Below, one piece after another: positions 5,918 through 56,965 of a stretch of DNA of 64,000 nt. The DNA is taken from assembly GCA_017453365.1 (NCBI GenBank), contig JAFTKH010000017.1, positions 515 to 64,514 on the forward strand, in the 5' to 3' direction. The stretch's first letter is position 1. Every line of letters starts with the position of its first letter. The position numbers were made by a program, and so were the translations under genes. Source of the stretch: Clostridia bacterium (GTDB lineage: Bacteria > Bacillota > Clostridia > Oscillospirales > CAG-272). The notes under the pieces are model-generated. The model ran no database searches. It saw nothing but the letters and a program-made list of their open reading frames with translations, and was not told the origin of the DNA.

Positions 5918-6117
5918 GAAGTGTAAAACCTCCTAAATTAAGGTAAAACATAATATTACAGATGATATTATAACACGGGCAAAATCAATTGTCAAGGAGT
6001 TTTATGGCGTGCAAATCAGCCAAAGCGAAAAAAGAAAAGTTTGAAAGAAAGGGGCGGAGCGCTTGATTTTCCCGTTGCTCTATGCTACAATAAGATAAAA
6101 AACAGAGAGGTGTTTTT

Positions 6118-6663
6118 ATGAAGCTTCTTATCTGCTCCGACATACACGGTGATATCGGCGGCGCCCGTGCCGCAGTAGATTTTTTCGAGAGGCATAGCTG
6201 TGACAAACTGCTCATTCTCGGTGATATTCTCTACCACGGGCCAAGAAACGACCTGCCCGATGGATACGCACCCAAGGCGGTAACAGAGCTGCTGAACAAA
6301 TACGCAGACAGGATAATAGCAGTGCGCGGAAACTGCGACGCCGAGGTAGACGGTATGGTGTTAAAATTCCCTATAGATGCTGACTACGTTATACTCGATG
6401 ACGGCAGCACCTATATTTTCGCGACACACGGACATCATTACAATACCGAGAAGCCCCCAGCGCTTCCCTCCGGGGCAGTTCTTCTGCACGGACATACACA
6501 CGTGCAATGCTCTGTAGAATTCGGTAACGGCAACCTCTATCTCAACCCGGGCTCGGTGTCCTTACCGAAGGAAGGCAACCCGAAAACGCTTCTGATCTAT
6601 GAGAACTCCGTGTTCACTCTTTACGACCTTGACGGAAATATTATGTGGGTGACAAATTCTTAA
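6118..6663 (+). CDS. yfcE: YfcE-like metallophosphoesterase (phosphodiesterase)
   Basis: SDIHG, GDILYHGPRN, VRGNCD, THGH, HGHTH, NPGSVSLPK. Confidence 0.9.
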   Translation: MKLLICSDIHGDIGGARAAVDFFERHSCDKLLILGDILYHGPRNDLPDGYAPKAVTELLNKYADRIIAVRGNCDAEVDGMVLKFPIDADYVILDDGSTYIFATHGHHYNTEKPPALPSGAVLLHGHTHVQCSVEFGNGNLYLNPGSVSLPKEGNPKTLLIYENSVFTLYDLDGNIMWVTNS

Positions 6664-35738: not shown

Positions 35739-38700
35739 TCAAGTACCTTTATAGTTTTTTTCACCTTTTCTCCTTTTTTCGTGCACAGTCGCGACCTTAT
35801 TTGCCTCACCGCCCGTCAGTGCTATCATTTTCACCGCAGAGAGGCTAAAGGCGTTCGCATATAGCTTAAGAGGCTTATCTATCGCTCCGCGCGCGAGCAC
35901 CTTAAGGTATCCTGCTTCCTCGGGTACGAGGCCGCGAGCCTTCAAGACGTTTATATCTATAACGTCATCTGCCGAGAAGCTTTCGGACAGTGTGTCTACG
36001 TTTATTATCGCACGACGTCTTCCCTGCGTATATATTTTAGTTCCCTCACGTCTTATGAGCGTTTTCGCAATACCGTCGCTGATAAGGCCGTCGGCACGCG
36101 TTACGTCGACTCCGCCTGCGGGAATTTCTGTAGGACTCGGAAGCGCGGCATTTGTTACCGGTGCTGCAAGACACCTTTCCTTGACTGCGAGAAGCAGACC
36201 GCGAATATCCTCGCGCCTTTTCGCGGCAAATACCAACAAAAGCATTAATGCCACCGCGAGCAAAAAGCAAAGAAACAGGGCGCGGCTCACGGCGGGGCTC
36301 GGGCGCGGAACGTAGTTTATATTTCCGGGGATAACGGTGAGGCGATAATTTGCATTGTCCGAGGTCGCATACAGTTTTCCGTCGAGGACGCAGTAGGACA
36401 CGTTAAGCTCTTCTCCCTCTGCTATGCTACCCTCTACGACTGCATAACCGTTTCCCCTCGGCTCCTCAAAAAGATAAACGTCCTCGTCAGCGAGCATTAC
36501 CGTAAGCTCGGACGGGAGTATAACGAACTCGAGAACCGTTTCCCCCGAAAGCTCGTAGTTGTTTGGGTCGACAGGTGCGAGCTCGACGTAATAGCTTCCC
36601 GCATCACGAAAGCCCGTCGTATTTACGACGCGGTATAATGGAGAGGACGGCGTAGGCAGCTGGAGCTCTCCGTTATAGACCAAGCCGCCTATGAGAGTCG
36701 GAGTTATCTTCTGCTTTTCAATGATGAGGGTACAAGGGGAAAGGGTCGGCGGCTCATAATTACGCTCGTCATACGAAAAGGCGGGTATTACCGTATATTG
36801 GCCAGCGTTTGTCCCTGCGCCCGAGAGCGAGAGGAGGGCTACCCCCTCGGGCAGTCCCGAGAGCGTGGGCAGCTTCGCCGTACCGTCGTACACGGCTACA
36901 GTGTTGCTCCATACGGCTCCAGACATATCGTAGCTTATCTTCTCTACTGTCACCGAAGCGCCCGCTGCTACGCCGAGGCAGGTGAAATTAACCCCGCCGT
37001 CACCGACTAGAAGGCAATCCCCCTCCCGATATTGAACGGCAACCTGCCGTGTGTCTACCTCTCTGACAGAGCCGTCGTTATAGGCGAGCTTCGCAGAAAA
37101 GTCGTCGGGCCCTACCCTATCAAAGGCAGAAAAGACGCTTTTTTTCATAGTAATATCAAGTCTTACAGGAACTATATCTATAACGGAAAATGAAGCAGCC
37201 TCCGAGAAAAACGGCAAATAATTCGCCCCCTCGGCAACATAGGCGCGTACGTAGTAGAGTCCCGGGGCCGTTGGTGTCACCTCGACTGTAAGTGCAGAGT
37301 CTCGGTAAAAAACGAAGCTCGGCTCTCCGTATTCGGCCGTAGCCTCGGGAGAGGGTGGCGTGCCGACAAACACGTCGCCCACCGTCAATTCAGACGTCAG
37401 GGAGTTCATTTTTTTGTTTATTTTATAGGAAACGTCGCTGTTTATTACGTAATAATTTTTATTCACAGACACCGCACGAGCGGTATATTCACCGGCATCA
37501 ATAGCAGCTCCTATCACGTAGGTGGGATATTCACCTATGGCATAGGGCTGCTTCTCCATACCGTCATAGACAAAATCCGTACCGTACCAAACTACGGTAA
37601 AGCCACGCGGTATTACCGTTATCGGAACATAAAGCTTCGAGGGGGGATAGTAATTGGTGCTCTCTGTAGAAAACACCACCTCTACGACGGGAGCTCCGCC
37701 GACGTCGGTGACACCGTCACCATAGGTGAAGGTGAGAGGAATACCGTCAAGTCCCGTCGGCATACTTCCGTTAAGGGTCGGAAGATGAGGTGTGCCGTCG
37801 TAGACAAATTCACCGCCGGTAAAGGAAAAGCCCGAGGTGTCGTAGGGAGCACGCTCGATATACCAGGTGAATTCAAGGGGTGGTGGCTCGTTATAGTTCG
37901 CACTGTCGAAAGAGAGAACGCAGGAAAGCTTATACTCTCCGGCATCGCAGCCTCTGTTATCCGTATAACCGACAACCGTAACACCAAGCGGCAGCCCCTC
38001 AAGAGCAACTGTTTTCACCGTGCCGTCGTACACAAAGCTGTCCGAGGAGAGACGAAGCCCCGAGAGGTCAAGGTCTGCTTTCAAAATGTTGTATTCCGTT
38101 GTGTAATTTCGTAAACTATAATTTGCATTATCAGTTGCCGCGACAGCGATGTAGCCGTCCTTCGCCATGATTGCGCCACCCGTCACGGTGAGCGAGACGG
38201 AAGCACCGAAAACGTCGGTAAATTTAGCACGGGGGCACATTACCGTGCCGTCATAGACGAACACCGTCCTATCCCAAACGACTGTTGCGGGCGCTGGATT
38301 TATTATCAGTGCCGAGTAGCTCACGGCAGGCGACTCGTAATCGAGCGAGTCGGTCGTAAAGCGAATCTCAACAACATACTCTCCGGCATCCGTTCCGCCG
38401 CCCGCAACGAAGGCGCGAAGCGGAATGCCGTCAAGCCCTACGGGCAGCTCCTTGTCAAAGGGATAGGTTTTATACGTACCGTCGTATACTGTCTCGACAC
38501 TCTCGAGGGTGAAGGTAATATCATATTCCCGCTTCACCACCGTGACGGGCACAGCTACCCTCACGCCTCTGTACTCGGCTATCACCGCCGTGTCTCCAAA
38601 GCGCAGACAGTTATCGGTCTGATAGAATACGGACACGCTTTCGGCTCCCAAGGTAATTTTTTGTCCGCTCTCATAGGTCACGAGGAAGGAAAGGCCGTCA

Positions 38701-40562
38701 CGCTTAAAATAATCAAAGGCGCGGTATTCCAGAACGTTCGGCTGTGTTTCGACCGAAAGAGCTACAGGAATGTCCTCACGTATTTCGAGGAGAAAGGGCT
38801 CCGTAGAAAGACCAGTATAGTTTTCGCATTCCGCGACCTCAGCCACTACGTAATACACGCCGACTTTATCGGGGGCGCTGTCCAGGTATTCCTCGCTTCC
38901 CTGCTCCCAAAACCTGTAAGCTACACTGCCGAAAAGAGCGTTACCGAAGAGCTTCAGTGTCTCACCGCTGTAGACCCACTCTGCATAAGGAACAGTCAGC
39001 CATGCGTTTTCCGCTCGGAGCACGGAGAAGCCTACGTAGACGGTATCTCCGCCTGCTCCCTGCCACGCGTAGTTCTCAGGGTCGGTAAGTGTTACGGGGA
39101 TAAGGTATTCTCCCGCATTTGTGTAGGTATCATACGAGGCGGTATAAAGCGCGCTCTCGTCAATATCGGGTATAAGCTCCGAGCCAGTATAAACGGTGCT
39201 TAAGTTCTCGGGCGGTGTTAACGTCATCTTCGAGACCGTTACAGTTATATAGGGGGTTACAACGCTTACACTGTCGCGCCCGACGGTAAAGGTTATTCTG
39301 CACCTGTATTTTCCGCTATCACTTACGCTTCGGTAGGTGAGGGCAGACGTAAAGCTCAAGGTCTCACCGCTCTCTCCCTCCCACGCGAAGGAATAAAATC
39401 CCTCGCCATCTAGGGGGTGCGAGAGCTCGGAGAAGGTGACGGTATGCTCTCTTCCGTCGTAGACGGTATCCGCGCTCAAAAGAGAGAAGGTCGGGGCGGC
39501 AAGTGTATACGAGGCGTAGAGCGTCAGGTCCGCGGTTGGAGCTTCGGCAAAATTATACTCCTCGGAGAGTGTTCCGTCTGTGCACCATACACCGGCGGTA
39601 TAGCCCTCACGCTCGGGTATAGGAAATGCGGTAGGGGTCATTCCCGAAAGAAGCTCCTCCGTATATACCGTAACACCGCCTGATATATAGGTCACATTAT
39701 AAGGAAGGTATACCGCCAGATATCCGTCGCCGCCGTTCTCAAAGAACGTGAGTCCGCGTGGAGCGCCGTTGCTATCGTAGACGGTGATATTATCGGCGCG
39801 TCCCCCGTCTATGCCCCAAACGACGGGATATAGGCCGCCCTTTTCAAATTCCCTTTGCAGCTTCACCGAGAGCGTTCCGCCGAAGGGTACGTCAGAGCTG
39901 ACGTAAAGCTCTCCCGAGGAGATGATATCGTATACTGCCGAGTCAAAGCTCACCGATCCGCCTACGGTGAGCGTACCGAAGGTTTCAACGGGGACACCCG
40001 CAGTGTTATCAACGTGTCCGCCGAGCAGCTCCGTGCTTCCTCTCTCAAGATATATGGCAGGAGATGAGGAGAGTGTGCTAACACGTCCGCCCGTCATAGA
40101 AAAAAACGACGAGGACACACCGGCCAGCCTGACCGCCGTTCCGTCCGAATGGCTGACAAGGCCGGAGACCATATACACCCTTCCGTCCCAGACGTCGAGC
40201 ACGCCGTCACCCGAAAGAGCGACGGTAAGGCCGTCGAGTGTCAAAACGGCGCCCCCCTTCACAGTTACCCCCTCCGTCGACGAAAGGCTTCCCGACAGGG
40301 TAAGCTCGCGCGTGAGTGTCAAGGGAGCGGAAAGACTCACGGAGTCAAATCTAACGTGCGAGCCGGCAGGTATAAGGTTAAAAAGCTCATCTATACTCGC
40401 AGAGAGCACAGGCTCGCTACCATCGGGTACTGAAAGCGTATACGTGCCCGCATCGCCCGTGAGAATATATTCCTCTCCTTCCTCGGCGCGCACCGATAGG
40501 GACGTGCCGAAAAATAGTAATAGTGCGAAAAGAGGGATTAGCAAAACGTACAGCTTTTTCAT
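35739..40562 (-). CDS. Large single-pass surface protein (InlB B-repeat, MBG/Ig-like repeats) with a cytoplasmic C-terminal ribosomal protein uL15-like domain
   Basis: Signal peptide ending VRA, repeated VYDG/DAGEY modules, TM ALFLCFLLAVALMLLLVF-AAKRR, then AIINVDTL...LKVLARG...ANAFSLSA...GG. Confidence 0.75.
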   Translation of the reverse strand: MKKLYVLLIPLFALLLFFGTSLSVRAEEGEEYILTGDAGTYTLSVPDGSEPVLSASIDELFNLIPAGSHVRFDSVSLSAPLTLTRELTLSGSLSSTEGVTVKGGAVLTLDGLTVALSGDGVLDVWDGRVYMVSGLVSHSDGTAVRLAGVSSSFFSMTGGRVSTLSSSPAIYLERGSTELLGGHVDNTAGVPVETFGTLTVGGSVSFDSAVYDIISSGELYVSSDVPFGGTLSVKLQREFEKGGLYPVVWGIDGGRADNITVYDSNGAPRGLTFFENGGDGYLAVYLPYNVTYISGGVTVYTEELLSGMTPTAFPIPEREGYTAGVWCTDGTLSEEYNFAEAPTADLTLYASYTLAAPTFSLLSADTVYDGREHTVTFSELSHPLDGEGFYSFAWEGESGETLSFTSALTYRSVSDSGKYRCRITFTVGRDSVSVVTPYITVTVSKMTLTPPENLSTVYTGSELIPDIDESALYTASYDTYTNAGEYLIPVTLTDPENYAWQGAGGDTVYVGFSVLRAENAWLTVPYAEWVYSGETLKLFGNALFGSVAYRFWEQGSEEYLDSAPDKVGVYYVVAEVAECENYTGLSTEPFLLEIREDIPVALSVETQPNVLEYRAFDYFKRDGLSFLVTYESGQKITLGAESVSVFYQTDNCLRFGDTAVIAEYRGVRVAVPVTVVKREYDITFTLESVETVYDGTYKTYPFDKELPVGLDGIPLRAFVAGGGTDAGEYVVEIRFTTDSLDYESPAVSYSALIINPAPATVVWDRTVFVYDGTVMCPRAKFTDVFGASVSLTVTGGAIMAKDGYIAVAATDNANYSLRNYTTEYNILKADLDLSGLRLSSDSFVYDGTVKTVALEGLPLGVTVVGYTDNRGCDAGEYKLSCVLSFDSANYNEPPPLEFTWYIERAPYDTSGFSFTGGEFVYDGTPHLPTLNGSMPTGLDGIPLTFTYGDGVTDVGGAPVVEVVFSTESTNYYPPSKLYVPITVIPRGFTVVWYGTDFVYDGMEKQPYAIGEYPTYVIGAAIDAGEYTARAVSVNKNYYVINSDVSYKINKKMNSLTSELTVGDVFVGTPPSPEATAEYGEPSFVFYRDSALTVEVTPTAPGLYYVRAYVAEGANYLPFFSEAASFSVIDIVPVRLDITMKKSVFSAFDRVGPDDFSAKLAYNDGSVREVDTRQVAVQYREGDCLLVGDGGVNFTCLGVAAGASVTVEKISYDMSGAVWSNTVAVYDGTAKLPTLSGLPEGVALLSLSGAGTNAGQYTVIPAFSYDERNYEPPTLSPCTLIIEKQKITPTLIGGLVYNGELQLPTPSSPLYRVVNTTGFRDAGSYYVELAPVDPNNYELSGETVLEFVILPSELTVMLADEDVYLFEEPRGNGYAVVEGSIAEGEELNVSYCVLDGKLYATSDNANYRLTVIPGNINYVPRPSPAVSRALFLCFLLAVALMLLLVFAAKRREDIRGLLLAVKERCLAAPVTNAALPSPTEIPAGGVDVTRADGLISDGIAKTLIRREGTKIYTQGRRRAIINVDTLSESFSADDVIDINVLKARGLVPEEAGYLKVLARGAIDKPLKLYANAFSLSAVKMIALTGGEANKVATVHEKRRKGEKNYKGT

Positions 40563-40772
40563 AAAAATCTCCCACAAAGAAAATTACATTTAGGGAGATT
40601 ATAGCACCCGCGCCCGTCCTAGGACAAGTCGTATATACCGTTAAAATATCCAAAAGTTACGACTGTTTTTCCCCTCTTCGCCGAGCGTTGCTTAACTTTT
40701 TTCAAAAAATAACGGCAAGCGACAAAAAAAGAGATGACGGAAAGACTCAAATTTCGAATCTTTCCGCCTAAA

Positions 40773-43715: not shown

Positions 43716-44192
43716 TCAGCCGTTTTCGCGCGAGCATTTCTCGGCATCTATAGCGAGGACGAGCATAAGAACGGCGAGGGCGTTATCCTCATACTCAACG
43801 TCAATGGAATAGGTATCAGTCCAATTGAAGAGCTCCTTCGACACACGTGCTACGGGAAGTCCCATAATATCGAGGACGGTATAATCCCACTCAAAGAAGC
43901 TGCCGTCGACCTGCCAGCCCTTATAATCTATCGTAAATTTAGGGCGGAAGAAGGTAAACTGTTTTTTAATCTGCCCTGCGTACTCACCCTCAAGGTAAAT
44001 ATCGTATTTAGGAAGGAAGGTGAGCACCTTTTCCTTCACCATACCGACCTCGCGCCCCGACTTATCGTAGACGCGGAAGCAGTGTCCCCAGGCAAGCTGA
44101 CCCTTCACGGTGTAGACGGTATTCCCCGTCTCGTCGAAGATGTCGTAGCTGTCAAACCAGGAGAATAGCTTCTGTTTAAATAAGAGCTTCAA
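43716..44192 (-). CDS. LURP-one/tubby-like (scramblase family) protein
   Basis: KQKLFSWFDSYDI, KEL..WTDTY.ID, LAID. Confidence 0.85.
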   Translation of the reverse strand: MKLLFKQKLFSWFDSYDIFDETGNTVYTVKGQLAWGHCFRVYDKSGREVGMVKEKVLTFLPKYDIYLEGEYAGQIKKQFTFFRPKFTIDYKGWQVDGSFFEWDYTVLDIMGLPVARVSKELFNWTDTYSIDVEYEDNALAVLMLVLAIDAEKCSRENG

Positions 44193-45046
44193 AATTCATC
44201 CCCCCATATACCTCTTATATGCTTCGCATAAATTTTATTGATAACAAAAAGTCCGTCGTCGGTTGCGGCTCTGTGAGTTTTCACACCGTAGTTGTATTTA
44301 GGTGCGTCCTCGAGCGAATAGAACTGATAGAGGTGAACCTCATGCTTCGACATGTGGTGGCGATAGTTAGCCATCTCGCGCTGCTCGTAGGTCCACTGCC
44401 CCTTCGAAACGTATTCCTTCACCCAGTCGGGCTGCTGCTTCACATACTCGCGGTTGTCAACGAGCTCGACGAGGGAGAGAAGCTTATTATTTTCGTCGAC
44501 GTAGAACATACCGCAACGGGGATCAAACCACACCCAAGTGTCCTCAAGGTATATCTCGCAGGTGATGTGTCCGCTCAAGTGCATAATAATCCTACCGGGG
44601 AGCCCCATAACCTCACAGAGAGCGACCATAAGTCTGCCGACACATTCACAGAGATTTTCACCCTTTGCTATAAGCACCTCCTCGGAGCCGCCGAAAAACT
44701 TCAGGTGCTCGGGTATCTCCTTACCGTTATGTAAATAAAGGTCACGGATAAACACGAGGATAGCAAGAACACGCTCGCGGTCGGTTTTACACCCCGCTAT
44801 AACGCGAGCAACCTCATTCTCGAGAACGGGACGCGAGCCCTTCCTGTATCTGACGGGGCCGGGCTTCGCATAGAGGTATTCCCTAGTTTCGGGACAGAGG
44901 AGTATCTGCTCCTTCAGTCTCTGCCACTCGACGTTATCGCCGTAATTTATATGAAGCTGTTCCCAGTTCATAGTATATGCCCATTTTTCGTCATCTGTCT
45001 TCAATACGTTAAGTATGTTAAGACCCTGATAATCGCTTATGTTCAA
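44189..45046 (-). CDS. Transglutaminase-like (Cys-His-Asp) domain protein
   Basis: CECVGRLMVALCEVMGLPGRI...HITCEIY...WVWFDP; own promoter TTGACT-17-TATAAT at 45092-45120. Confidence 0.75.
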   Translation of the reverse strand: MNISDYQGLNILNVLKTDDEKWAYTMNWEQLHINYGDNVEWQRLKEQILLCPETREYLYAKPGPVRYRKGSRPVLENEVARVIAGCKTDRERVLAILVFIRDLYLHNGKEIPEHLKFFGGSEEVLIAKGENLCECVGRLMVALCEVMGLPGRIIMHLSGHITCEIYLEDTWVWFDPRCGMFYVDENNKLLSLVELVDNREYVKQQPDWVKEYVSKGQWTYEQREMANYRHHMSKHEVHLYQFYSLEDAPKYNYGVKTHRAATDDGLFVINKIYAKHIRGIWGDEF

Positions 45047-46973: not shown

Positions 46974-49900
46974 TTACTCTGCTGCGACTGTTGCGGGGTG
47001 CGGGTTTATCTGCGAGAAGTAGCTCTCGAGGTTCACCACATCGTCCGCGGTAAGTGCCGAGCGGAATACCATAAGCTCATCCAAATACATCAGAGGAGCG
47101 TGGTTGGTATCTGCTGTACCGTACTCGCCTATTGTGAAGGGCTGCGCATCAGCAGAAAGATCGGCAGGAATTTTCGTACTACTATTGTAGTAAGTGATAT
47201 CAGTGCTGTAAACCTCAACGAAGTTAAAATATACTACAAGCTTACTATTCGTTCTATCCATGCTTACAGCAACATGTGTCCATTCATTCACAGCTATATT
47301 ACCCGAAAGCGTACATATAGCCTGCATTCCGGCGGTACCGTCACCGATGGTGACTGCAAGATTATTGTACTCAAGATCCAAAAGAATGTTCATACCGAGA
47401 TTTTCACGGGAAAGGCCTGCCGCTGTCGATACTATCGGGAGCTTATATCTGCTTGCACCGCCCATGGTTAAATTGGTAGGATTAATCCAGAAGGATACGG
47501 TGAAATCACCGTTTTCGAGCTTCAAATCTTCAACCGTCTGGTAGTTGCTTCCCGAGTAGTATGCAGAGGTGCCCGCTACACCGTTGTAGCCGCTACCATA
47601 GGTAGTTGTTCCGGTTTCTGTGACAGTGGTATTTAGAGTTCCTTCCGTATTAAGGTTACCATCAAATCCTAAATAAAGCTCGGGGGCCTTATCCTCACCG
47701 AGGTAATCGGAGACAGGATTAATGTAGTAATCCTTAAGCTTTGCAACGTCTGCTTCAGTTACTGCCCTATTAAAGATCATAAGGTCATCCATATAAACCT
47801 TGGGAGTCTTCGTCAGGGGAGATGCATACTGTCCGACTGTGAACGGCATAGCATCCATATCAGCATCCTGCGGGAATGCAGCTCCGCCATAACAAGTTAT
47901 AACGTTAGTGGTATTTCCGTTTATATCAGATACCTTGACAAAGTCATAGTATACCTCAAGAGTATCTGAATCTCCGTCCTTATTAACACTTATCGTTATA
48001 TGCGTCCACCTATTCTCGTAGGTATCAGCAGGAAGGGAATACTGATACTGTGCACCGTCAGTTACATCATCACTTCCCATAGTAATTGCGAGGTAGTCTC
48101 TTTCATTATTGAGCAATACGTTCAGGCCTGCATCTTCACGTCCGTCACCGACGCTCGTCGACAAAAGTGCGAATATCCATCTATCAGAAGAGGTATTACC
48201 GTTTGTCAAATCTGTAGGATTCAACCAGAAGGAGAAGGAGAAGCTGCCTGTGCCGAGCTTCACATCCTCAAGGGTTGCGTAATTCGTGCCGCTGAAATAG
48301 ATAGAGCCGCTCTCGGTTCCGTCATAGCCGGAGCCGTAGGTTGAGGTGCCGGTAGCGGTGATGCCGCTGGGCTGGCTGCCCTCCTGGTGAAGGTCGCCGT
48401 TAAAGTCAAGGTATACCTCGGGCTGAGTATCGTTGTCGAATACGCTGATAGCGCCCTCGTCAACTATTGGAGTCTTATTATAATATTCAACAAGAGCATT
48501 CAAATCCTTATTCGTGAAGGCACCGTTCCAAACCATAAACTCGTCGACGGTAAGGCCTGCCTTTTCTGCGTCGTAGCCTGCATCCTGACCTATTACGAGA
48601 TACTCGTATACGGTAGTGAGGTCAACCACGGACATATCGGTCGAGCCTCTGTCGCTGGCTATCTCTACAGTCGTGAACTCACCGAAGTCGTAGCACATAC
48701 GAAGCTCGTTGTTGGCTCTGTCAACTACGAGGGTTACGTGCGTCCAGCCCTTCACAACCTCGGCGGGGTCAAGGTCGGTCTTAATTCTACAGCCTGCCTC
48801 ACCGTTTCCGATATTGAAGTAGGTGTAATACTGGATAGGACCGGTCAGGCGCTCTGCGACGAAGTTAAAGCCGTGACCCGTAGTTCCCCACTGTCCGTTC
48901 GAGAGTATTACGGACGAGCCGTGGTGTGCGGGAGTCTTCATCCAGAAGGTTACGGTAAAGCTATCAGTACCGGGTGCGAAGCCGTCGAGGGTCAGATATC
49001 CGCGGTCAAGGCTCGCCGCGCTACCGAAGTAGCCGTCGATATAGTTAACTATACCGCCCTCTGTTACTGTAGCGCCCTGCGTATCGGTCGCAGTACCGTC
49101 AAGGGGAAGGTAGTTGATAAGCTCCTTATCAACGTAGTCGGTTACGTAGCTGCCGCTACCAAGGGCGGGAGTATCAGTAGGTACTACGTCGCGGGGGTTA
49201 TCGGGGTCGTGGTATACGGGACGCTCCTCGGCACTAACACCGTCGAAGAGGTTCTCGGGAATGCAGCCCGTATAGGTCTCGGGAGCTGCGATACCAAGAG
49301 CATAGAGTGCGATAGCCGCGGTGTCGCGGTTATCAACACCGTCGATAGTTCCGCCGTTCTTAACAGTCTTACCTGCTACGGCGAAGAGAACGTACTGCTC
49401 GGCATCGGACTGACCGCCGTGGGTAGTGCCCGTTCCGCCGTGATCAGCGGTTACGATGAAGAGGGTCTCATCAAGAATTCCGAGAGCCTCATAAGCTGCG
49501 TAAATCTCTCCGATATCTGCATCAGAGTCTGCTATTGCTGTAGCGTACTGTTCAACGTCTGCGCTGTAGCCGTAGCCGTGACCAGCAGCATCGGGAGCGT
49601 GAAGGTGTACGAAGAGGGCCTTCGGTGCGCTATCCTTAAGATACGTACCGGTTATGTAGTTCATAAGGTCGGTATCGTTGTTATTCGTACAGATCTCGTC
49701 AATACCAACACCGTCCTCAACACAGCCGTTAATGCCGCACCAGGAGTAGAGAGCTCCGACTCTCTCGTCAGGATAAGCTTCCTTCACAAGCTTTAAGAAG
49801 GACGGATACTTTGAGTTAGTGTAGGATGCACCGTCTGCCTCAACTGCCTCGTTCTCATAAATTCCGTGATGCTCGGGAAGAACACCGTGAAGGTGAGATG

Positions 49901-50858
49901 CCCAAGAGGGGCCGGAGGAGGTGGGAGCGTTTATAAACATCTGTTCGGTCTGTGCACCGTTAGCAAAAATCGCGTCAATGTTCGGGGTCGATGTCTGCGC
50001 TACGCCCTCGCTGTCGCGCCATCTAAACGTACCTGCGCCGTCGACGCCTATTACTACTACGTAGTTATACATACCGAACGAGGAGCTCTCGGCAGAGAGG
50101 GTCGCGGTTACAGTCGTATTCTCGTCTGTTACAGTGTACTCATACGTGTTACCAACCGCTACAGTCTGACCGTTCGCGTTCGACCAGATTACGTAGGGGA
50201 GCTCTTCGGTAGGAGTTGCGGTAAGGATTACCTTAGTACCGACCTCATAGAGTCCCGAGTTCATTCCGTCGGGAAGCTCGCCTCCCACAACGGTGACCTG
50301 TCTGTAGGTATCGGTCGCAAGCGACTCGGTGTTCTCACCGAAGTACTGCTGCGCTGCTGCGCCGTAGGCGAGCATCTCAAGAAGGACGTTCTTCAGCTCA
50401 TCGGTAGCGCTGCTTTCCTTCGTTATTCCGAGCATATTATAGGCATACTGAAGGATGCTGTACTTGAACGGCTCGCTGTACGTGCCGTCGTAGTAAGCCT
50501 TTACGTACACGTTTTTCGTCATTTCAGCTGCCGCAAGGCCGTCAAATCTGAACGTTGCTTCCTGCGTTTCTGTGTTTTGCTCACTCGACTTAATTGAGTA
50601 ATGCTCGTTACCCTTCACACAGTCGTCAACGTGTATTCCGTCGCCGACCCAAATAAGGAGCTCAATATCTTCGGGTGCGGATATATTCTCATATCCAACC
50701 AAGAAGAGCATATTTACCGAGTCCTCAAGCGAAAGGGCACCGTGCTTTACCTCAAGGGCAGGCTCACTCTCGCTCGCGGAGACACCTATTACAACTGCCG
50801 TCGCGGAGAAAATGAGCGTAAGCACGAGTAGTAGAGTTAGTGCTAATCTCTTTTTCAT
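46974..50858 (-). CDS. Secreted multidomain protein: uncharacterised N-terminal module, alkaline-phosphatase-superfamily domain, three LamG domains
   Basis: Signal peptide MKKRLALTLLL...VSA; IGVDGAG, PTSSGPSW, DAAGH, TADHGG; three FxxxFW..P/WTH+.+/DELM+F repeats. Confidence 0.85.
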   Translation of the reverse strand: MKKRLALTLLLVLTLIFSATAVVIGVSASESEPALEVKHGALSLEDSVNMLFLVGYENISAPEDIELLIWVGDGIHVDDCVKGNEHYSIKSSEQNTETQEATFRFDGLAAAEMTKNVYVKAYYDGTYSEPFKYSILQYAYNMLGITKESSATDELKNVLLEMLAYGAAAQQYFGENTESLATDTYRQVTVVGGELPDGMNSGLYEVGTKVILTATPTEELPYVIWSNANGQTVAVGNTYEYTVTDENTTVTATLSAESSSFGMYNYVVVIGVDGAGTFRWRDSEGVAQTSTPNIDAIFANGAQTEQMFINAPTSSGPSWASHLHGVLPEHHGIYENEAVEADGASYTNSKYPSFLKLVKEAYPDERVGALYSWCGINGCVEDGVGIDEICTNNNDTDLMNYITGTYLKDSAPKALFVHLHAPDAAGHGYGYSADVEQYATAIADSDADIGEIYAAYEALGILDETLFIVTADHGGTGTTHGGQSDAEQYVLFAVAGKTVKNGGTIDGVDNRDTAAIALYALGIAAPETYTGCIPENLFDGVSAEERPVYHDPDNPRDVVPTDTPALGSGSYVTDYVDKELINYLPLDGTATDTQGATVTEGGIVNYIDGYFGSAASLDRGYLTLDGFAPGTDSFTVTFWMKTPAHHGSSVILSNGQWGTTGHGFNFVAERLTGPIQYYTYFNIGNGEAGCRIKTDLDPAEVVKGWTHVTLVVDRANNELRMCYDFGEFTTVEIASDRGSTDMSVVDLTTVYEYLVIGQDAGYDAEKAGLTVDEFMVWNGAFTNKDLNALVEYYNKTPIVDEGAISVFDNDTQPEVYLDFNGDLHQEGSQPSGITATGTSTYGSGYDGTESGSIYFSGTNYATLEDVKLGTGSFSFSFWLNPTDLTNGNTSSDRWIFALLSTSVGDGREDAGLNVLLNNERDYLAITMGSDDVTDGAQYQYSLPADTYENRWTHITISVNKDGDSDTLEVYYDFVKVSDINGNTTNVITCYGGAAFPQDADMDAMPFTVGQYASPLTKTPKVYMDDLMIFNRAVTEADVAKLKDYYINPVSDYLGEDKAPELYLGFDGNLNTEGTLNTTVTETGTTTYGSGYNGVAGTSAYYSGSNYQTVEDLKLENGDFTVSFWINPTNLTMGGASRYKLPIVSTAAGLSRENLGMNILLDLEYNNLAVTIGDGTAGMQAICTLSGNIAVNEWTHVAVSMDRTNSKLVVYFNFVEVYSTDITYYNSSTKIPADLSADAQPFTIGEYGTADTNHAPLMYLDELMVFRSALTADDVVNLESYFSQINPHPATVAAE

Positions 50859-50891: not shown

Positions 50892-51056
50892 TTAATCCCA
50901 TGGAAGATCCCAAGACCCGCCGCCTGTCTCGGGGACGTCAACTCCGGAACCGTCTCCGTCGGGGGTTTCCCCGGCTCCCGAGGTCGTTATCACGTCGCAC
51001 GGAAGGAGAGGCAAGAAAACCGAGCTTGGCTTTTCGTAGATTTTTTTACTTCGCAT
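50892..51056 (-). CDS. 54-aa peptide MRSKKIYEKPSSVFLPLLPCDVITTSGAGETPDGDGSGVDVPETGGGSWDLPWD (not in the ORF track)
   Basis: Translated by hand; AAAGGAG RBS 5 nt before ATG; YxxP...DVITTSG shared with the neighbouring peptide. Confidence 0.8.
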   Translation of the reverse strand: MRSKKIYEKPSSVFLPLLPCDVITTSGAGETPDGDGSGVDVPETGGGSWDLPWD

Positions 51057-51168
51057 TTTTTCTCCTTTCTTTGGATTTATATTTTAATTTCTGCCATTAA
51101 TTACATCTAAAGCACGGGGATTGTTTATATCGTCGCTTTTCACCCCGCTAAAGCGGGAGAGTTTCTAC

Positions 51169-51259
51169 AATCCTTCACCGCTTCGCGGAGCGTCTCGCTG
51201 CGACTCGGTCACGCTCACGCCGTTTCGCTAGCGCTTCACTACCTTTACACAAGGGAGCC
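51169..51259. repeat. REP/MITE-like palindromic element between the two peptide genes
   Basis: aatccttcaccgcttcgcggagc...cctttacacaagggagcc with several short hairpins. Confidence 0.45.
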
Positions 51260-51263
51260 ATAT

Positions 51264-51377
51264 TTACCAGTCGAAGGCGTCGACGAGCGGCATATCTCCG
51301 CCCGAGGTTGTAATTACATCCTTATCATCTGTGTAGGTAAGGATTATTTCGGGAGATTCATAGTTTTTTTTCATCAT
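51264..51377 (-). CDS. 37-aa peptide MMKKNYESPEIILTYTDDKDVITTSGGDMPLVDAFDW (not in the ORF track)
   Basis: Translated by hand; AAAAGGAG RBS (second ATG at 51374 is better spaced); about 25 nt downstream of the large gene; YxxP...DVITTSG motif. Confidence 0.8.
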   Translation of the reverse strand: MMKKNYESPEIILTYTDDKDVITTSGGDMPLVDAFDW

Positions 51378-51402
51378 TTTCTCCTTTTATCGGGGCCGGG
51401 AA

Positions 51403-54400
51403 TTAAACATCCCACGGCAGATCCCATTTTCCGTCACTGCCGCTATCGGGCGTAGGCTCCTCCACGTCGGGATTATCGGTGCCGTCATCGGGCTGCTCGA
51501 TATCGGGGTAGCTCACCGAGTAGTCATACGCGTAGGCGCAGTAGGTATAGAGCGCATCAAGCAGAGGACGGCAGGTCGAGGTGTCCTCCGCTACGTATGA
51601 GGAGAGTGTGAAGACGGCTGTTTCAACCGTATCACTACCCTCACTCTGTGCGGAAACCGTAACCTCCTTATTGAAGAGATCCTTCGCCTTTATATATCCT
51701 ATCGCTATGATAGTCTCGCCCTCTTTACCCTCTACGAGGCCGCCCGTTACGTTATAGGTTATTCCCTCTACCGTTACACGTCCCGTATATCCTTCCGCTA
51801 TATGTAACAGTATCTTTACGTCAGAGGATATCGAGAGGTTAACGGCTCTTACAGCAGAGGTGAGGTTATCTATCGAGCCAGACGCCGCCCTTGTCACCAC
51901 ACCATCGGTGGAAAAGTCTGTCAGCTCTGTAGGAGCGGTGGCGTTTGCATAGGAGTACGCTTCCTTCACGTAGGCTATTGCCGCCTTACCGAGGAGCTTC
52001 GACTCGTCGGAATACTCACTCGCCATAAGCTTCTCTACGTACGCGAGAACAGAGTAATCAAGAGTAAGTGTTTGAGTGATGCCGTCCGAGAGGACTGTTA
52101 CCTCGAAGGTTACGGCATCCGCCGCCTTATGTGCCGGGAACTCGACTGTGTATTTATCCTTCCCCTCCCATTCGACGGGCGAGAGCTCGATGCCGTCTGC
52201 GGTTATACCGAGGATTACGCTTCTGTCAGCGAAGAAATTAAGATTGAAATTCGCGGAAAGCGTGAGATTTACCTGAAGGGCGCTTCCGACGGACAATTTT
52301 TTAACGTAGCAGTAATATACAACCCCATCATACATTCCGTCAATATTAAGCGTGCCGCCCTCGTACATAGCATAGTTCGTAAGGTCGGTTATAGGTGTAT
52401 CTCCCGAGTACCAAGTGACGTTCGCCGAGTGGTACTGTGCCGCGGTCGCGCCGTGCTCAACAACGTTATACACACCGGACGTGAAGCGCGTATCGACGTC
52501 GATATTGATATATCTCACGTAGGTCGAGGCAGGGGCTGCGCCCGAATCGATAACCTCTATAAGAGAGTCGAAGTTATCGAGGACGGAGCCGCCCGTGACG
52601 GTTACGGAGTAATTGGTATCGGCTACGTTATTATAAATTTGAGCAATGAGGATGCTCTTAAGAGCTGTGCCGTCGAGGATAAGCTTCTTTTCCTCACTTC
52701 CCGAAGCGGCTAAGAAGCCGTCCTGTGCGGATATGTAACCGCTGTTCTTACTCATTACGGTACAGTTAGTCAGGGATACCGTCCTAGCACTTCCGTTATT
52801 GAAGAGGTGCTTATTCACCGTTATATCAATGTTTTCAAAATAGACGTTGCTACCCGGGCGAGCCAAAATCGCCGAATAGGTGTTATCCGTCATAACGAGC
52901 GTTCCCCTGCCCGAAGAGCTTATGAAGCGAACATCACGCTCGGGAAGCCAAGAGGCTCCGAGGTTACCCGCGTAGGTGCTGTTATCACCCTTTCCTATAG
53001 TTATCTGACCGCCTACGGTCGTTGCGGTATAGCCGTTAAGGTCGAAGGTAACGTCGTAGTCGTAGAAGGTATTAAGCGTTCCTACGGTAATATCCGAATA
53101 GAGCTTTACTGTCGAGCCGTTCTCGGTGACGAGGACGTAGTCACTGCCCGAGTTGCCCTCGAGATAAGGGGTCTCCCAAGCGGTAAGTATTACGCTCTCG
53201 CCGCCTGCTCTCCACTCTATTATCCTATAGGAAGAAATATCGCCGATAAGAGAATAAGAATCTACGCCTTCCTTCTTATAGTAAAAGTCGGTGTATTTAA
53301 CAGATGCATCTGCCGAAACCACAGCGATATTGCAGCTGCTATCCTCGCCATTTGCATTTATAGCAGTGCCTGTGGACGTTGCCGAATCTGCATTTAGAAC
53401 GTAGGTGAAATCGGGAATCGCACCCTCGGTGAAGGTCACACCCTCCTCGAAGAAGAGCTCAACCGGCACGCTATCTGCCAGGGTATTCGAACGGGCGAGG
53501 TAGTAGTTACCGTTTCCGCTGACGGTACAATCCTTATCAAAATACACGGTACCGCCGTCACCGTCACCTCTTACCCAGAAGAGGGGTGCTGTACGGTTGT
53601 CGGCAACGGTAATATCGGTGCCTATAAATTCGAGTCTGCCCGCGGGAGATTTAACCCAGCATGCGGCGGCAGAGTTAAGCGTTATCTTACAGTCGGTGTA
53701 GCTGATAAGCGCTGCGCCGCCGTCGTAGATCATCTGGTACCAGCCGCTCGCGGTTACGTTGATTGCTACACTGTCGAAGATAAGCTCGGTATCGGGGCGA
53801 GGAGATATCTGACCGCCCGTTATGTTGAAATATCCGTTTTTGACGGTAAGGGAGGCTTCGGGATACGAAGCGGACACGCCGCCTATCGATAACCCTGACG
53901 CAGAATTAATGACGTGCTGATTAAGGTTGATAACCAGCTTCTGCGTATTACCTACTATTACCTCCGTCGCAATATTAAGGTCTGACCACAGGTGCACGTA
54001 GCCGGGAATGACACCCTCGGTGTAATAAGTCGTGCCGTCGCCCGCGGTCGCGATAATCGCGGTATCGAGGTCGGTCGAGGTCGAGAAATAGATGGGGTTC
54101 TCCCCTGCCATAAAGTCCGCTTCGCTCATCCACACGCCGTAGGTTATTCCGTCGTAGGCGGAGTCGTCGGGAGACCAGACTATGCTCTCCATACGCATTA
54201 TTGTCGAGAGGCCGTCCTCGCCGAGCTTAAGTCCCCATTCGCCGTCAGCGATATAGGTACCGGCCTGCACCTTTCCGGCGAATTCACTCCCAGAGAACAG
54301 GTCACTCGCTGCGGTGGTTACCGTATTATCGTAAATGCAGGTGCCCGAGAGAGTCATAATAGTATCAGCGGTCGGAAGAGTGTAGCTTATCCCGTCGTCC

Positions 54401-56667
54401 TCGGGGACTATGACCGCAACCTCGAGGGGGCCGCCCTCGGTATTCGCATACGCGGTTACCGTCGAGACCCCAATAGCGGTTTCGCTAGTTATGTCTGCAC
54501 CTGTTTTATTGTAATAGGTATAGGTGTATGGCATATTGTAGTCGGGCTTCGCCGCCTCGGAAATTCTGCATCCGAGCTCGAAATAAAGCCCCTGCGTCTT
54601 ATAGAAGCCGCGATAGGTATTGTTTACAGCCGCGCCGTCGGTCAGGGAGACCCAATTATTGCTCGCTCTGTCAACCGACGAATCTCTATCGAAGAGTATC
54701 TTCACATTAGTATATCCGTAATAGCTGGTTGAGATATTAAACAGAGGTTTACCGGGAATACCCTCACAGACGAGGTCGGAGTTCTTGAATATAAGATAGC
54801 TCTGATAGGGGGACGCTATGTTATGGCCTATAGCGAAGCTTGCATCTCCCTTAATCTTAACTATACTGTCCTTAAACATAAGGAGCTCACAGCCGTTATC
54901 CTGGATGACATTCGAGGTCCAGCTGCACGTGTAGTCCCTCGCGTCGTATATGACGTTCTCAAAGATAACGGTTGTATCCTGACGTAAATATACGGGGTCT
55001 GCCGTATGGTAAACCGTTCCGTTCTTTACGGTAAAGTACGCCTTCGCATGCGCACCGGAGCTTGAAATGTTCCATGAACTTGAGCAGCTCCAGGTGTAAC
55101 CCGCGAGGTTAACAGTAAGTCTTTTATCACCTACGTCAACGCGCCCTGCCGTGCTGTTGCTCACATCCGAATAGAAATGAACGTATCCGACCGTAGCCGC
55201 GCCCGAGCCTATATTGCTCGCATCTGTGTATGCGGCGTAGTGCTCGGTGCCCTCTGCCGCCGCGTCAGCTGTATACCATGCTATGGGCTCTGCACCTGCG
55301 AGGAATGCGTCCTCGTCGGTCCAGGTTGCAAAGGTTACGTTATAGCCTGTATCGCCTGCGAGGTCTGCCGCGGTTTTCGCGTTCGGTGCAGACGTCGTCT
55401 GGTCGTACGAGCCGGGGATGAAATCGGGTCTTTCCGCGTCGGTGGTAACATCTGTTATTTCTATCTCACCGCTATTAGGTACAACGTCGATATACGCGTA
55501 GCTCACAGACCCGTCGTTTACACACTTCGCGGTCTTGGTTTCACCGTTTAAGGTATAGCTTACGCGCACCCAATCTGCGGGAAGCTCAAGCTTTACTGTG
55601 AGGGGATAATCGAAGACGTCGGCAGGAAGAGAAAGTCCGTCCGAGGTCTCGGACGCCATTTCTACGGAAACGTAATATTTGCCGCCAAGAGAATAGGCAC
55701 TGACGGTGGAGTTCTGGCGCTCGCGGACATATTTTGTCGCGGTGGAGAAATTAGCTACCCAGAGGTTACCTGAATTTTGGTATTTCTGCATAGCGGAGAA
55801 AATATATCTCGCCTGCGTTTCGTTCATATCGGTTGTATTTATCTCCTCGCCATCCTTCGTTACACCGTGGCATACGGAGATGAACCAACCGTTGTTATTT
55901 ATACACTGCTCCAGATATTTAACGATGTTTTCGGGGCTACCGCTCTCTGCGTAAACATCTGAAAAAGGCTGCATTCTCGTCATATATGGCTCAAACCATC
56001 CGCCGTAACCGACACCGGAGTCAGGCGAGAGCGACTGCATCTTCCCCGAATAAGCCGAGTTCGTAGTGACGGAGGCATCTCCGCCCGAGGTAGCATAGAA
56101 ATAGTCGTTAACTATTTCGTGCTGTGTACCGCCGTAGTTCGAATACGGAACAGCATAGGTCAAGCAATCGTATTCCGGAAACCACTGCTCCAGATATAGC
56201 TTCGAGTCACCTATTTCTGAATGTCTTTCCTCATCGGTCGAAAGCTCGGTATGGATATTCTTATGCCACATCGAATGGCTCTGAGGCTCGAGGTAGCCTT
56301 CTGCAAAGACTGCTCTCCATTCATCAATACTCTTTCTGCTCGTGCCGACAAGACTGTTATCTACGTCTATGTACGTCAACATAATCGAGGCTTCGAGTCC
56401 GTACTCTGCCAGAAGCTGATTCAGAAACAGAGCCGTATCGTATATACCGTCATCGAAGGTCATGGTAGCTATTGCATCAGCACCGCCCTTCGCAAGTGTA
56501 AGTTCTGCATTAGCGTCGATTTTTACCGTATCAGCACTTTCACTGTCCGCCGAAAGCGGAAAGCTGAACGATGGCAAAAGCATTGTTAAAAGCATAATCA
56601 GTGAAAACCCTCCCAAAAAAATCCTACGCATGACAGACGACTTTTTGGAAAGCTTAAATTCTCTCAT
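51403..56667 (-). CDS. Very large secreted protein: CE4/NodB polysaccharide deacetylase, three beta-helix-like repeats, two C-terminal unknown modules, acidic tail ending WDLPWDV
   Basis: AGGAGG RBS before ATG 56667; signal peptide ending PLSA; TFDDG, QSHSMWH; repeats GYVH(F/L)(Y/W)SD...L.+NL. Confidence 0.8.
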   Translation of the reverse strand: MREFKLSKKSSVMRRIFLGGFSLIMLLTMLLPSFSFPLSADSESADTVKIDANAELTLAKGGADAIATMTFDDGIYDTALFLNQLLAEYGLEASIMLTYIDVDNSLVGTSRKSIDEWRAVFAEGYLEPQSHSMWHKNIHTELSTDEERHSEIGDSKLYLEQWFPEYDCLTYAVPYSNYGGTQHEIVNDYFYATSGGDASVTTNSAYSGKMQSLSPDSGVGYGGWFEPYMTRMQPFSDVYAESGSPENIVKYLEQCINNNGWFISVCHGVTKDGEEINTTDMNETQARYIFSAMQKYQNSGNLWVANFSTATKYVRERQNSTVSAYSLGGKYYVSVEMASETSDGLSLPADVFDYPLTVKLELPADWVRVSYTLNGETKTAKCVNDGSVSYAYIDVVPNSGEIEITDVTTDAERPDFIPGSYDQTTSAPNAKTAADLAGDTGYNVTFATWTDEDAFLAGAEPIAWYTADAAAEGTEHYAAYTDASNIGSGAATVGYVHFYSDVSNSTAGRVDVGDKRLTVNLAGYTWSCSSSWNISSSGAHAKAYFTVKNGTVYHTADPVYLRQDTTVIFENVIYDARDYTCSWTSNVIQDNGCELLMFKDSIVKIKGDASFAIGHNIASPYQSYLIFKNSDLVCEGIPGKPLFNISTSYYGYTNVKILFDRDSSVDRASNNWVSLTDGAAVNNTYRGFYKTQGLYFELGCRISEAAKPDYNMPYTYTYYNKTGADITSETAIGVSTVTAYANTEGGPLEVAVIVPEDDGISYTLPTADTIMTLSGTCIYDNTVTTAASDLFSGSEFAGKVQAGTYIADGEWGLKLGEDGLSTIMRMESIVWSPDDSAYDGITYGVWMSEADFMAGENPIYFSTSTDLDTAIIATAGDGTTYYTEGVIPGYVHLWSDLNIATEVIVGNTQKLVINLNQHVINSASGLSIGGVSASYPEASLTVKNGYFNITGGQISPRPDTELIFDSVAINVTASGWYQMIYDGGAALISYTDCKITLNSAAACWVKSPAGRLEFIGTDITVADNRTAPLFWVRGDGDGGTVYFDKDCTVSGNGNYYLARSNTLADSVPVELFFEEGVTFTEGAIPDFTYVLNADSATSTGTAINANGEDSSCNIAVVSADASVKYTDFYYKKEGVDSYSLIGDISSYRIIEWRAGGESVILTAWETPYLEGNSGSDYVLVTENGSTVKLYSDITVGTLNTFYDYDVTFDLNGYTATTVGGQITIGKGDNSTYAGNLGASWLPERDVRFISSSGRGTLVMTDNTYSAILARPGSNVYFENIDITVNKHLFNNGSARTVSLTNCTVMSKNSGYISAQDGFLAASGSEEKKLILDGTALKSILIAQIYNNVADTNYSVTVTGGSVLDNFDSLIEVIDSGAAPASTYVRYINIDVDTRFTSGVYNVVEHGATAAQYHSANVTWYSGDTPITDLTNYAMYEGGTLNIDGMYDGVVYYCYVKKLSVGSALQVNLTLSANFNLNFFADRSVILGITADGIELSPVEWEGKDKYTVEFPAHKAADAVTFEVTVLSDGITQTLTLDYSVLAYVEKLMASEYSDESKLLGKAAIAYVKEAYSYANATAPTELTDFSTDGVVTRAASGSIDNLTSAVRAVNLSISSDVKILLHIAEGYTGRVTVEGITYNVTGGLVEGKEGETIIAIGYIKAKDLFNKEVTVSAQSEGSDTVETAVFTLSSYVAEDTSTCRPLLDALYTYCAYAYDYSVSYPDIEQPDDGTDNPDVEEPTPDSGSDGKWDLPWDV

Positions 56668-56965
56668 TGCATTCTTCCTCCTTGACAAAATCTTTGCAAC
56701 TTAAAGATATCATAAAATTTTTACACAATCAATGGCTATTTGTGGTTCATTTGGCATTTTGTTGGTTTTTTAATCAAAAAAACAACAAAAGGTAATATTT
56801 TCTCTCTTTTCAACAAAACTTTTTTCAAATTTGTGTTTTTTAATAGAAAAAACAAGTCAATTCGGTGTCATTTCTGTGTTTTTCCCTGTTTTTTGTGTTT
56901 TTTTGTATTGACTTTTTGTATAAAATGTGTTTAAATATTGATAGACCGCAAAGGAGAAAAGGTGT

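Follow-up and report, generated by a model that had tools for sequence, protein, structure and literature searches.

Linear polyphosphorylated peptides (LPPs), described in May 2026 by Popov et al. (Nat Commun 2026;17:6633; PMC13381572), are the closest described system to the two small genes reported here, and a literature search on polyphosphorylated peptides returned that paper as the only relevant one. According to its main text, the LppA precursors are 35 to 200 amino acids (aa) long, with a conserved N-terminus that carries a YxxP motif (leader consensus YxxPxVLxHQxIxFETxxS) and a variable C-terminus. LppB, a discrete recognition element (RRE) for peptides synthesized on ribosomes and modified post-translationally (RiPPs), binds Y-16 and P-13; LppS, a peptidase resembling signal peptidase I (SpI), cleaves after F-E-T in an LppB-dependent manner; LppK, an HprK-like kinase, polyphosphorylates core Ser3; and LppN and LppD are a nucleoside triphosphate (NTP)-transferase and an exporter, respectively. 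The clusters are located in capsule loci, and their biological role is unknown according to the authors (PMC13381572). Here, we analyzed a 64,000-nucleotide (nt) stretch of DNA from a Clostridia bacterium (contig JAFTKH010000017.1 of assembly GCA_017453365.1; the window, in whose positions coordinates are given unless a contig, C, or locus, L, is named), in which two micro-peptide genes lie between the genes of two giant secreted proteins. The window's own genome, a gut metagenome-assembled genome labeled G000, comprises 1.36 Mb in 38 contigs and is 52% complete, and the window DNA occurs in animal gut metagenome runs. On balance, we favor the reading that the two open reading frames (ORFs) are genuine precursors of a Clostridial, LPP-type branch whose tails would serve as ligands or adaptors of giant surface enzymes, not as antibiotics. 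That they are LPP-like RiPP precursors appears quite probable; that their product binds the C-terminal module of the upstream giant is a more tentative proposal, which could well fall either way.

Peptide 1 (51264..51377, minus strand) is 37 aa long and consists of the leader MKKNYESPEIILTYTDDK, the invariant motif DVITTSG, and the tail GDMPLVDAFDW (tail peptide, GGDMPLVDAFDW). Its start is probably the second ATG, at 51374, which would give 36 aa, because the spacing to the ribosome-binding site and the 36-aa homologues (P0001) fit this start better. Peptide 2 (50892..51056, minus strand) has 54 aa, made up of the leader MRSKKIYEKPSSVFLPLLPC, the same invariant motif, and a long, acidic, Gly/Pro-rich tail ending in SWDLPWD; its homologues P0056, P0075, P0111, and P0112 end in ..LPWD or ..LPFDF. 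An AAGGAG ribosome-binding site, read from the sequence, precedes each gene on the minus strand (51381..51386 for peptide 1; 51062..51067, 5 nt ahead of the ATG, for peptide 2). An earlier reading of the sequence alone (the sequence-only reading) had described two such micro-ORFs between a deacetylase giant and a phosphatase/LamG giant, with identical spacing between YxxP and DVITTSG despite divergent DNA, and this description was borne out throughout. Y-E-x-P is common to both peptides, DVITTSG stands 14 residues after the Tyr in each, and over the 21 aligned codons they agree in 10 residues and in 26 of the 63 bases; in the DVITTSG codons, 5 of 21 bases differ, all synonymously. The flanking proteins are one of 1761 aa with a Polysacc_deac_1 domain and one of 1294 aa with Phosphodiest and Laminin_G_3 domains. 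Neither peptide was assigned to any family by Pfam or NCBIfam. Between 50.0 and 52.5 kb, no consensus promoter or terminator was found (about one expected) and Rfam gave no match. The 207-nt spacer between the two peptide genes (51057-51263, minus strand) holds a GC-rich hairpin without a U-tract (fold z-score -1.44).

A six-frame scan of the 38 contigs of G000 identified seven such ORFs, both window peptides included. At E <= 0.01, the profile built from these seven picked 1754 protein clusters out of 7595 candidates (best E 1.3e-16), and among the 120 of these clusters that were listed, none had a Pfam family and the only name was 'hypothetical protein.' Scanning one genome per species with the pattern EDVITTSG gave at least 120 loci, of which 67 contained a family-type small ORF (70 peptides). 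All 67 family loci are Clostridia-type records (Ruminococcus, Oscillospiraceae, Lachnospiraceae, Acutalibacteraceae, Eubacterium, and others), and the pattern loci lacking a family ORF are chance matches in other phyla. The homologous small ORFs in related genomes on which the sequence-only reading depended are present. The family plan is M-K-K-x-Y-E-x-P, a beta-like stretch, (E)DVITTSG, and then the tail; the N-terminus of 27 aa is conserved, with a T-S-G pattern that is near-invariant in the family alignment, and the tails are hypervariable, 7 to 35 aa long and rich in Gly, Asp, Pro, and Glu. Both window peptides have YxxP, as do five of the seven G000 copies overall. An aromatic residue falls within the final four positions of 116 of the 160 unique tails, and seven tails have two or more Cys. 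Among 199 other genomes of the class, evenly drawn and each at least 90% complete, 27 carried the peptide, a single genome having as many as 14 matches; this count is a floor, because divergent members (EDIITND, EEVMVND) exist. A full-text literature search for the DVITTS motif gave no match.

The seven paralogues and 1754 homologous clusters, the purely synonymous differences within DVITTSG, the Shine-Dalgarno sites ahead of both ORFs, and the conserved position leave a negligible probability that these are chance ORFs or untranslated sequence. Two further ideas about the precursors were tried and set aside. Fusion to a large protein was sought among 8000 scored proteins, a weak test in which 12 proteins of 96-135 aa were found at E <= 0.001; all eight that were inspected were upstream read-throughs or tandem copies, none joined to a large protein. 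A double-glycine/C39 leader was dropped because Gly-Gly is not conserved.

The proteins neighboring the peptides were clustered and then examined with Pfam, NCBIfam, and phmmer, with locus counts referring to the 67 family loci of the at least 120 listed. Ten loci have an HprK-like protein (about 245 aa) that carries a Walker-A motif and is distantly related to HPr kinase and ScmC. A PqqD-family protein (about 87 aa) was found in 15, as was a relative of archaeal-type signal peptidase I (about 147 aa), with Peptidase_S24 detected in a fused form. The peptidase and/or NTP_transf_5, the latter sometimes fused to the peptidase, occurred in 13 loci, and an MsbA-like ATP-binding cassette (ABC) exporter in nine. 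The genes for kinase, RRE, and peptidase form an uninterrupted run in genomes G004 and G042, and G007, G014, G108, and G192 have an uncalled or unlabeled RRE-sized gap between kinase and peptidase. G000 itself encodes a PqqD protein (C1:78848-79171; PF05402, E 2.2e-16) whose gene shares 8 nt with the beginning of a signal-peptidase-like gene (TIGR02228, E 1.4e-08, below cut-off); the pair, at C1:78406-79171, lies 27 kb from the peptides and 14 kb outside the window, and the HprK-like kinase (E 2.5e-58) is on contig C12. The sequence-only reading had recognized an RRE-type YxxP leader, proposed processing in trans by enzymes encoded outside the window, and advised a genome search for PqqD and S24/S26 peptidase genes; the leader, the RRE gene in G000 and in 15 loci, the overlapping RRE-peptidase pair, and the distant kinase agree with it on each point.

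Full-length kinase was present in 26 of the 27 peptide-positive class genomes versus 12 of the 172 peptide-negative ones, with the tables read by hand and partial matches to housekeeping HprK excluded. The excluded matches span only profile positions of about 85-242; three longer partial matches in frames of about 290-315 aa (G039, G170, G194) were likewise taken as housekeeping HprK and excluded. No probability was attached to these co-occurrence counts because related genomes are not independent. PF14907 (NTP_transf_5) was detected in 9 of 10 near-complete congeners, and NTP_transf_5 and the exporter adjoin peptides in other genomes; mentions of PF14907 in the full-text literature were all unrelated.

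Several further observations concern these enzymes. The G000 kinase (L144, C12:27412-31092) lies apart from the RRE-peptidase pair and stands in divergent orientation to a gene whose secreted product has S-layer-homology-like repeats (by eye). In the congener loci L135, L136, L138, and L141, NTP_transf_5 stands, again by eye, among sugar epimerase/dehydratase-like and Wzz/CpsD-like (chain-length-regulator-like) genes, once directly after the signal-peptidase-like gene, a setting that, as far as gene content goes, seems to echo the capsule-locus context reported for LPP clusters. In four loci (L042 398-1988, L088, L012, and L067), a radical S-adenosylmethionine (SAM)/SPASM maturase (TIGR04463-like, E 2.3e-36, below cut-off) lies beside Cys-rich-tailed peptides in a cluster that is otherwise LPP-type; the combination suggests hybrid or diverse chemistry.

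The sequence-only reading had also taken the motif for a lasso-peptide junction, with cleavage after T-x before Gly1 and cyclization onto an Asp/Glu at positions 7-9. Some features of the family do match: the YxxP leader comes with a Thr at -2, Thr precedes a Gly by two residues in 145 of the 160 unique tails, a discrete PqqD-type RRE is present, and the best solved relatives of the RRE profile are lasso B1 proteins. The proposed cores do not, as Asp/Glu occurs at positions 7-9 in 76 of the 145 Gly-first cores, which is the level of shuffled cores (80.9 ± 5.6 in 500 shuffles), and 38 of these 145 cores do not reach 13 residues. Nor could an Asn-synthetase-like cyclase be attributed to the peptides in G000, in four near-complete congeners, or in the family loci. 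PF00733 gave weak partial matches of about 40 residues in G000, G002, G007, and G014; G004 has two AsnB-type proteins, neither near a peptide, and phmmer searches seeded with these two against the 1380 frames of the fetched loci returned one match, in the non-family locus L121. The lasso B2 protease family PF13471 passed its cut-off in none of the five genomes, G000 being 52% complete. The lasso reading is thus largely refuted and keeps hardly any probability. Because the conserved Ser near the cleavage site of LPPs is the phosphorylation site, the likelier role of DVITTSG is, by analogy, as a site for kinase/peptidase action and not as a lasso T(-2) junction. A 285-aa transglutaminase-core protein (44189-45046, minus strand; PF01841, E 1.5e-05) is encoded 6 kb downstream in the same gene string; it was considered as a lasso B2 and rejected, with no PF13471 match in G000 and no NCBIfam match.

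The genes directly upstream of the peptides tie the family to large secreted proteins, as the sequence-only reading had supposed. In the window, the 1761-aa secreted protein (51403..56688, minus strand; hydrophobic N-terminal segment, Polysacc_deac_1 E 1e-06) has its stop 25 nt before peptide 1, and peptide 2 follows its giant gene via peptide 1. All seven G000 copies lie directly downstream, on the same strand, of a gene for a signal-peptide protein of 700-1800 aa. These giants differ in their enzymatic or repeat domains and have their C-terminal ~260 residues in common; in the 1761-aa protein this module (51511..52290, minus strand) covers approximately residues 1467-1726, ends L..ALYTYCAYAYDY, and is the predicted docking site of peptide 1. 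An iterated hidden Markov model search detected the module in 43 frames of the fetched loci, and their alignment (A5) resolves it into two tandem repeats of a beta-sandwich and the Tyr-rich helices after it, ending L..ALYxYxxAAxxY. The AlphaFold2 model of the module is confident (predicted local distance difference test, pLDDT, 84.5; predicted template-modeling score, pTM, 0.79), and Foldseek searches of it against the PDB returned only generic Ig-helix tandems (e.g., IsdH and myomesin; template-modeling score, TM, 0.17).

For 60 peptides outside G000, 450 nt or more of upstream sequence were available; 27 of these lie no more than 400 nt downstream of a module protein gene, as do all seven copies in G000. 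The gap from the upstream giant gene to the peptide is mostly about 0-60 nt. Of the 199 genomes in the class sample, seven have the module, of which six were peptide-positive and all seven kinase-positive. Genomes G192, G108, and G042 present the order module protein, peptide, kinase, RRE, and peptidase; in the first two of these, a small secreted protein separates the peptide from the kinase. The module was matched 11 times in G000, several of the matches being in tandem arrays of giant genes encoding 1000-2700 aa (C20, C27, and C23). Five of the 11 have no adjacent peptide: two directly precede another giant gene, one is cut by a contig end, and the other two (C20 and C27) end arrays and carry short fused extensions past the last helix. 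The 1761-aa protein likewise has a fused extension beyond its last module helix, and its own C-terminal tail WDLPWDV (51406..51426, minus strand) repeats the motif at the end of peptide 2 (..DGKWDLPWDV in the giant, ..GGGSWDLPWD in the peptide); in the AlphaFold2 model this tail is not docked in cis (pLDDT below 50). Tail types in G000 track module subtypes.

The last 330 residues of the 1761-aa protein (38-row alignment) were co-folded with peptide 1 (115 rows), giving a score of 0.77 (runs 0.79, 0.77, and 0.00), whereas the best of three controls reached 0.01. Solved complexes attained the pass mark in 58 of 80 cases and mismatched pairs in 2 of 110, rates that are a rough guide only, our own alignments having been used. 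At least 4% of contacts are shared between the runs, with partner pLDDT values of 62, 58, and 26. The contacts of lowest predicted error involve tail residues 28-34 of peptide 1 (DMPLVDA), which face module residues 40-46 in the first strand of sandwich 1, residue 55, and residues 119-135 in the following helices; leader residues 6-16 also contact sandwich 2 and the last helices. The helices touched are those that alignment A5 shows as conserved and Tyr-rich. We know of no similar complex, and Foldseek found none, so the pass is unlikely to reflect a complex already known to the model. The co-fold supports, without demonstrating, binding of peptide 1 to the module.

From the observed family, gene neighborhoods, genome co-occurrence, and passing co-fold, we infer a route of processing, phosphorylation, export, and binding. 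The discrete PqqD-type RRE would bind the N-terminal Y-E-x-P strand, by analogy with LppB and LppA, and present the peptide to the archaeal-type signal-peptidase-like protease, which would cut in or next to DVITTSG. The HprK-like kinase would target the invariant Ser/Thr of this motif, as suggested by the parallel with LppA Ser3. The variable, acidic, Trp-ended tail would then be exported, the exporter not having been found in the half genome G000, and would dock, as modeled, as an added strand on the first strand and the Tyr-rich helices of the upstream giant's twin module.

A rather unlikely alternative accepts the LPP-type precursors and lets the mature peptide act independently of the giants, for instance in signaling, against microbes, or as part of a capsule or biofilm, with adjacency reflecting co-transcription with envelope genes. 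The LPP gene set and the kinase co-occurrence fit it equally well, as does the unknown role of LPPs, whose clusters lie in capsule loci according to the main text of the LPP paper (PMC13381572). It also gains from the NTP_transf_5 genes among epimerase and chain-length-regulator-like genes in this genus, from the absence of the module from most peptide-positive genomes, and from the Cys-rich tails (7/160) and radical SAM/SPASM maturase (4 loci), which suggest diverse chemistry. It accounts less well for the very tight gap to the upstream giant (mostly ~0-60 nt), for module proteins directly at the cluster in G192, G108, and G042, and for a predicted complex scoring far above its controls. The parallel between G000 tail types and module subtypes also points away from independence, although co-duplication alone would produce the same pattern.

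Alternatively, the whole 36-54-aa peptide could be an unprocessed small subunit that binds the module by its N-terminal strand and its tail and is no RiPP substrate. The predicted contacts of residues 6-16 with the second sandwich and of the tail with the first would suit such a subunit, as would the failure to find the exporter and NTP-transferase in G000. It remains very unlikely: a seven-residue motif invariant across families speaks for a conserved enzyme partner, the kinase accompanies the peptide in 26 of 27 genomes, RRE and peptidase each lie beside peptides in 15 loci, and a cytoplasmic peptide must in any case be exported to meet a Sec-exported module.

Several results weigh against the reading that we favor, an LPP-type precursor whose tail engages the giant. 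One of the three co-fold runs scored 0.00, and the fold of peptide 1 is uncertain. The other 33 of the 60 peptides elsewhere follow something else, some coming after differently ended large secreted proteins and others being part of the cassette, and the module occurs in only 6 of the 27 peptide-positive class genomes; the module is therefore not a general partner. Compared with the C-termini of neighboring proteins, the peptide tails gave a mean best score of 12.9 versus 12.6 ± 0.4 when permuted, and the likeness is striking only in L037, L049, and L126 and between peptide 2 and the 1761-aa protein. Lacking a signal peptide, the precursors could act outside the cell only with an exporter, and neither NTP_transf_5 (PF14907) nor an LppD-like or cassette-type exporter was found in G000, at 52% completeness; on a profile of four cassette exporters, which score 567-954 bits among themselves, the best G000 ABC protein reached 221 bits. 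In 31 of the 160 unique tails there is no Ser, Thr, or Tyr after the motif. The leader is Y-E-x-P ... DVITTSG instead of YxxPxVLxHQxIxFETxxS, the window peptides have no F-E-T, and the conserved Ser is 19 residues after the Tyr where the main text of the LPP paper gives 18 (PMC13381572); many Clostridial members have YxxP, F-E-T, and a Ser 19 after the Tyr, a register that differs from the LPP consensus. Finally, the single G000 RRE has LppB (9x8z_B) as its best match (E 0.0053), but a profile of 16 RREs ranks the lasso B1 proteins TbiB1 (1.2e-08), TfuB1 (5.5e-06), and PbaB1 (1.4e-05) above LppB (0.0095), and orthology to LppB is therefore not established.

Other features of the window and of the peptide clusters were recorded alongside. 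The 1294-aa secreted phosphodiesterase/LamG protein (46974..50858, minus strand), downstream of peptide 2, carries no twin module; one LamG-type region of it also matches Toxin_R_bind_N (E 2.5e-10, overlapping Laminin_G_3), which we read as a shared lectin-like fold and not as a toxin. Farther downstream, a 1612-aa ORF (35739-40577, minus strand) has a Listeria-Bacteroides repeat and a hydrophobic stretch near its end, followed by a Ribosomal_L27A/uL15 match (E 7.5e-12, residues 1524-1592), either an odd fusion or two genes merged. Small secreted or lipoprotein-like proteins of 116-261 aa in the clusters end in [DE]-L-P-[FILV]-[VI]-P (e.g., ..IELPFVPVG and ..VELPFVPFD), at L101, L011, L082, L084, L106, L126, L062, L158 (G192; 5651-6289), and L159 (G108; 4474-4977), and some have dockerin-like GDxDGNG repeats (by eye). 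This motif, defined post hoc, lies in the final 14 residues of 8 of 340 neighbor proteins versus 1 of 8015 internal windows. As a feature of the peptide tails it was rejected, only 1 of 70 tails having it.

What appears new is a large Clostridial branch that bears an invariant motif of its own, with as many as 14 matches in one genome, and whose precursors stand systematically behind giant secreted enzymes sharing a previously undescribed twin-sandwich end module, where the co-fold would place the peptide. The maturation genes can be scattered, in which case genome mining based on clusters would miss the precursors. The function of LPPs becomes directly addressable by binding and knock-out experiments, and the findings bear on how gut Clostridia retain or organize very large surface enzymes. 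As a long shot, LPP-type peptides might be ribosomally made tethers: the HprK-like kinase would polyphosphorylate the invariant TTS end, which the NTP-transferase would then link to polysaccharide of the capsule or wall, the tail would dock into the module as an added strand, and fused tails and the ELPFVP-type lipoproteins would be alternative anchors. If so, the coupling to polysaccharide would explain why LPP clusters lie in polysaccharide loci, megadalton enzymes would be retained on a Gram-positive surface by a sortase-free, peptide-mediated route, and LPPs would gain a function.

Set against described systems, the peptides resemble LPPs most closely. The likeness extends to short precursors with a conserved YxxP N-terminus and a hypervariable C-terminus, to a core gene set of kinase, discrete RRE, signal-peptidase-like protease, NTP-transferase, and exporter (the last two beside peptides in genomes other than G000), to the lack of a cyclase, to the links with polysaccharide loci, and to a conserved Ser close to the cleavage site, here a putative one, as far as the main text of the LPP paper describes these traits (PMC13381572). 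Beyond the leader and the ranking of lasso B1 proteins above LppB by the RRE profile, the differences lie in the carriers, which are Clostridia here and Bacilli in the 2026 description, and in the number of copies, with up to 14 scattered matches per genome here against one to three per cluster there (PMC13381572). Many of the peptide genes here, moreover, come immediately after that of a giant secreted protein whose C-terminus is a dedicated module. The main text of that paper contains none of the words 'Clostridia,' 'secreted,' or 'surface,' and its supplements may list such clusters (PMC13381572). We file the peptides as a Clostridial variant that would work like LPPs, not as a proven member of the clade.

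Lasso peptides of the paeninodin type (Bacillota) share the [Y/W]xxP leader bound by a discrete B1 RRE and the use of an HprK-like kinase and an NTP-transferase as tailoring enzymes, as far as the main texts relate (PMC13381572; PMC7533575). The family described here differs in that no macrolactam synthetase and no transglutaminase-type B2 were found, the position of the acidic ring residue is not conserved, and a serine-type signal-peptidase-like protease stands in place of B2. SynChlorMet-type cassettes (TIGR04249 ScmC, TIGR04352, and TIGR04353) combine, as here, an HprK-like P-loop protein with a PqqD-family chaperone, but paired radical SAM enzymes are not the rule in our loci. Weak matches to ScmC (9.2e-08) and PqqD_rel_X (3.9e-04) were both below cut-off, and the peptides' enzymes are not members of that group because the scores are far below the family cut-offs. 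Gram-positive surface proteins also use non-covalent tethering modules, e.g., cohesin-dockerin pairs and strand-complementing peptide tags. No sequence or fold relation to these was found, and the partner here would be a RiPP-type peptide; the likeness, if the co-fold is right, would be that a short peptide adds a strand to the Ig-like sandwich that ends a large exoprotein.

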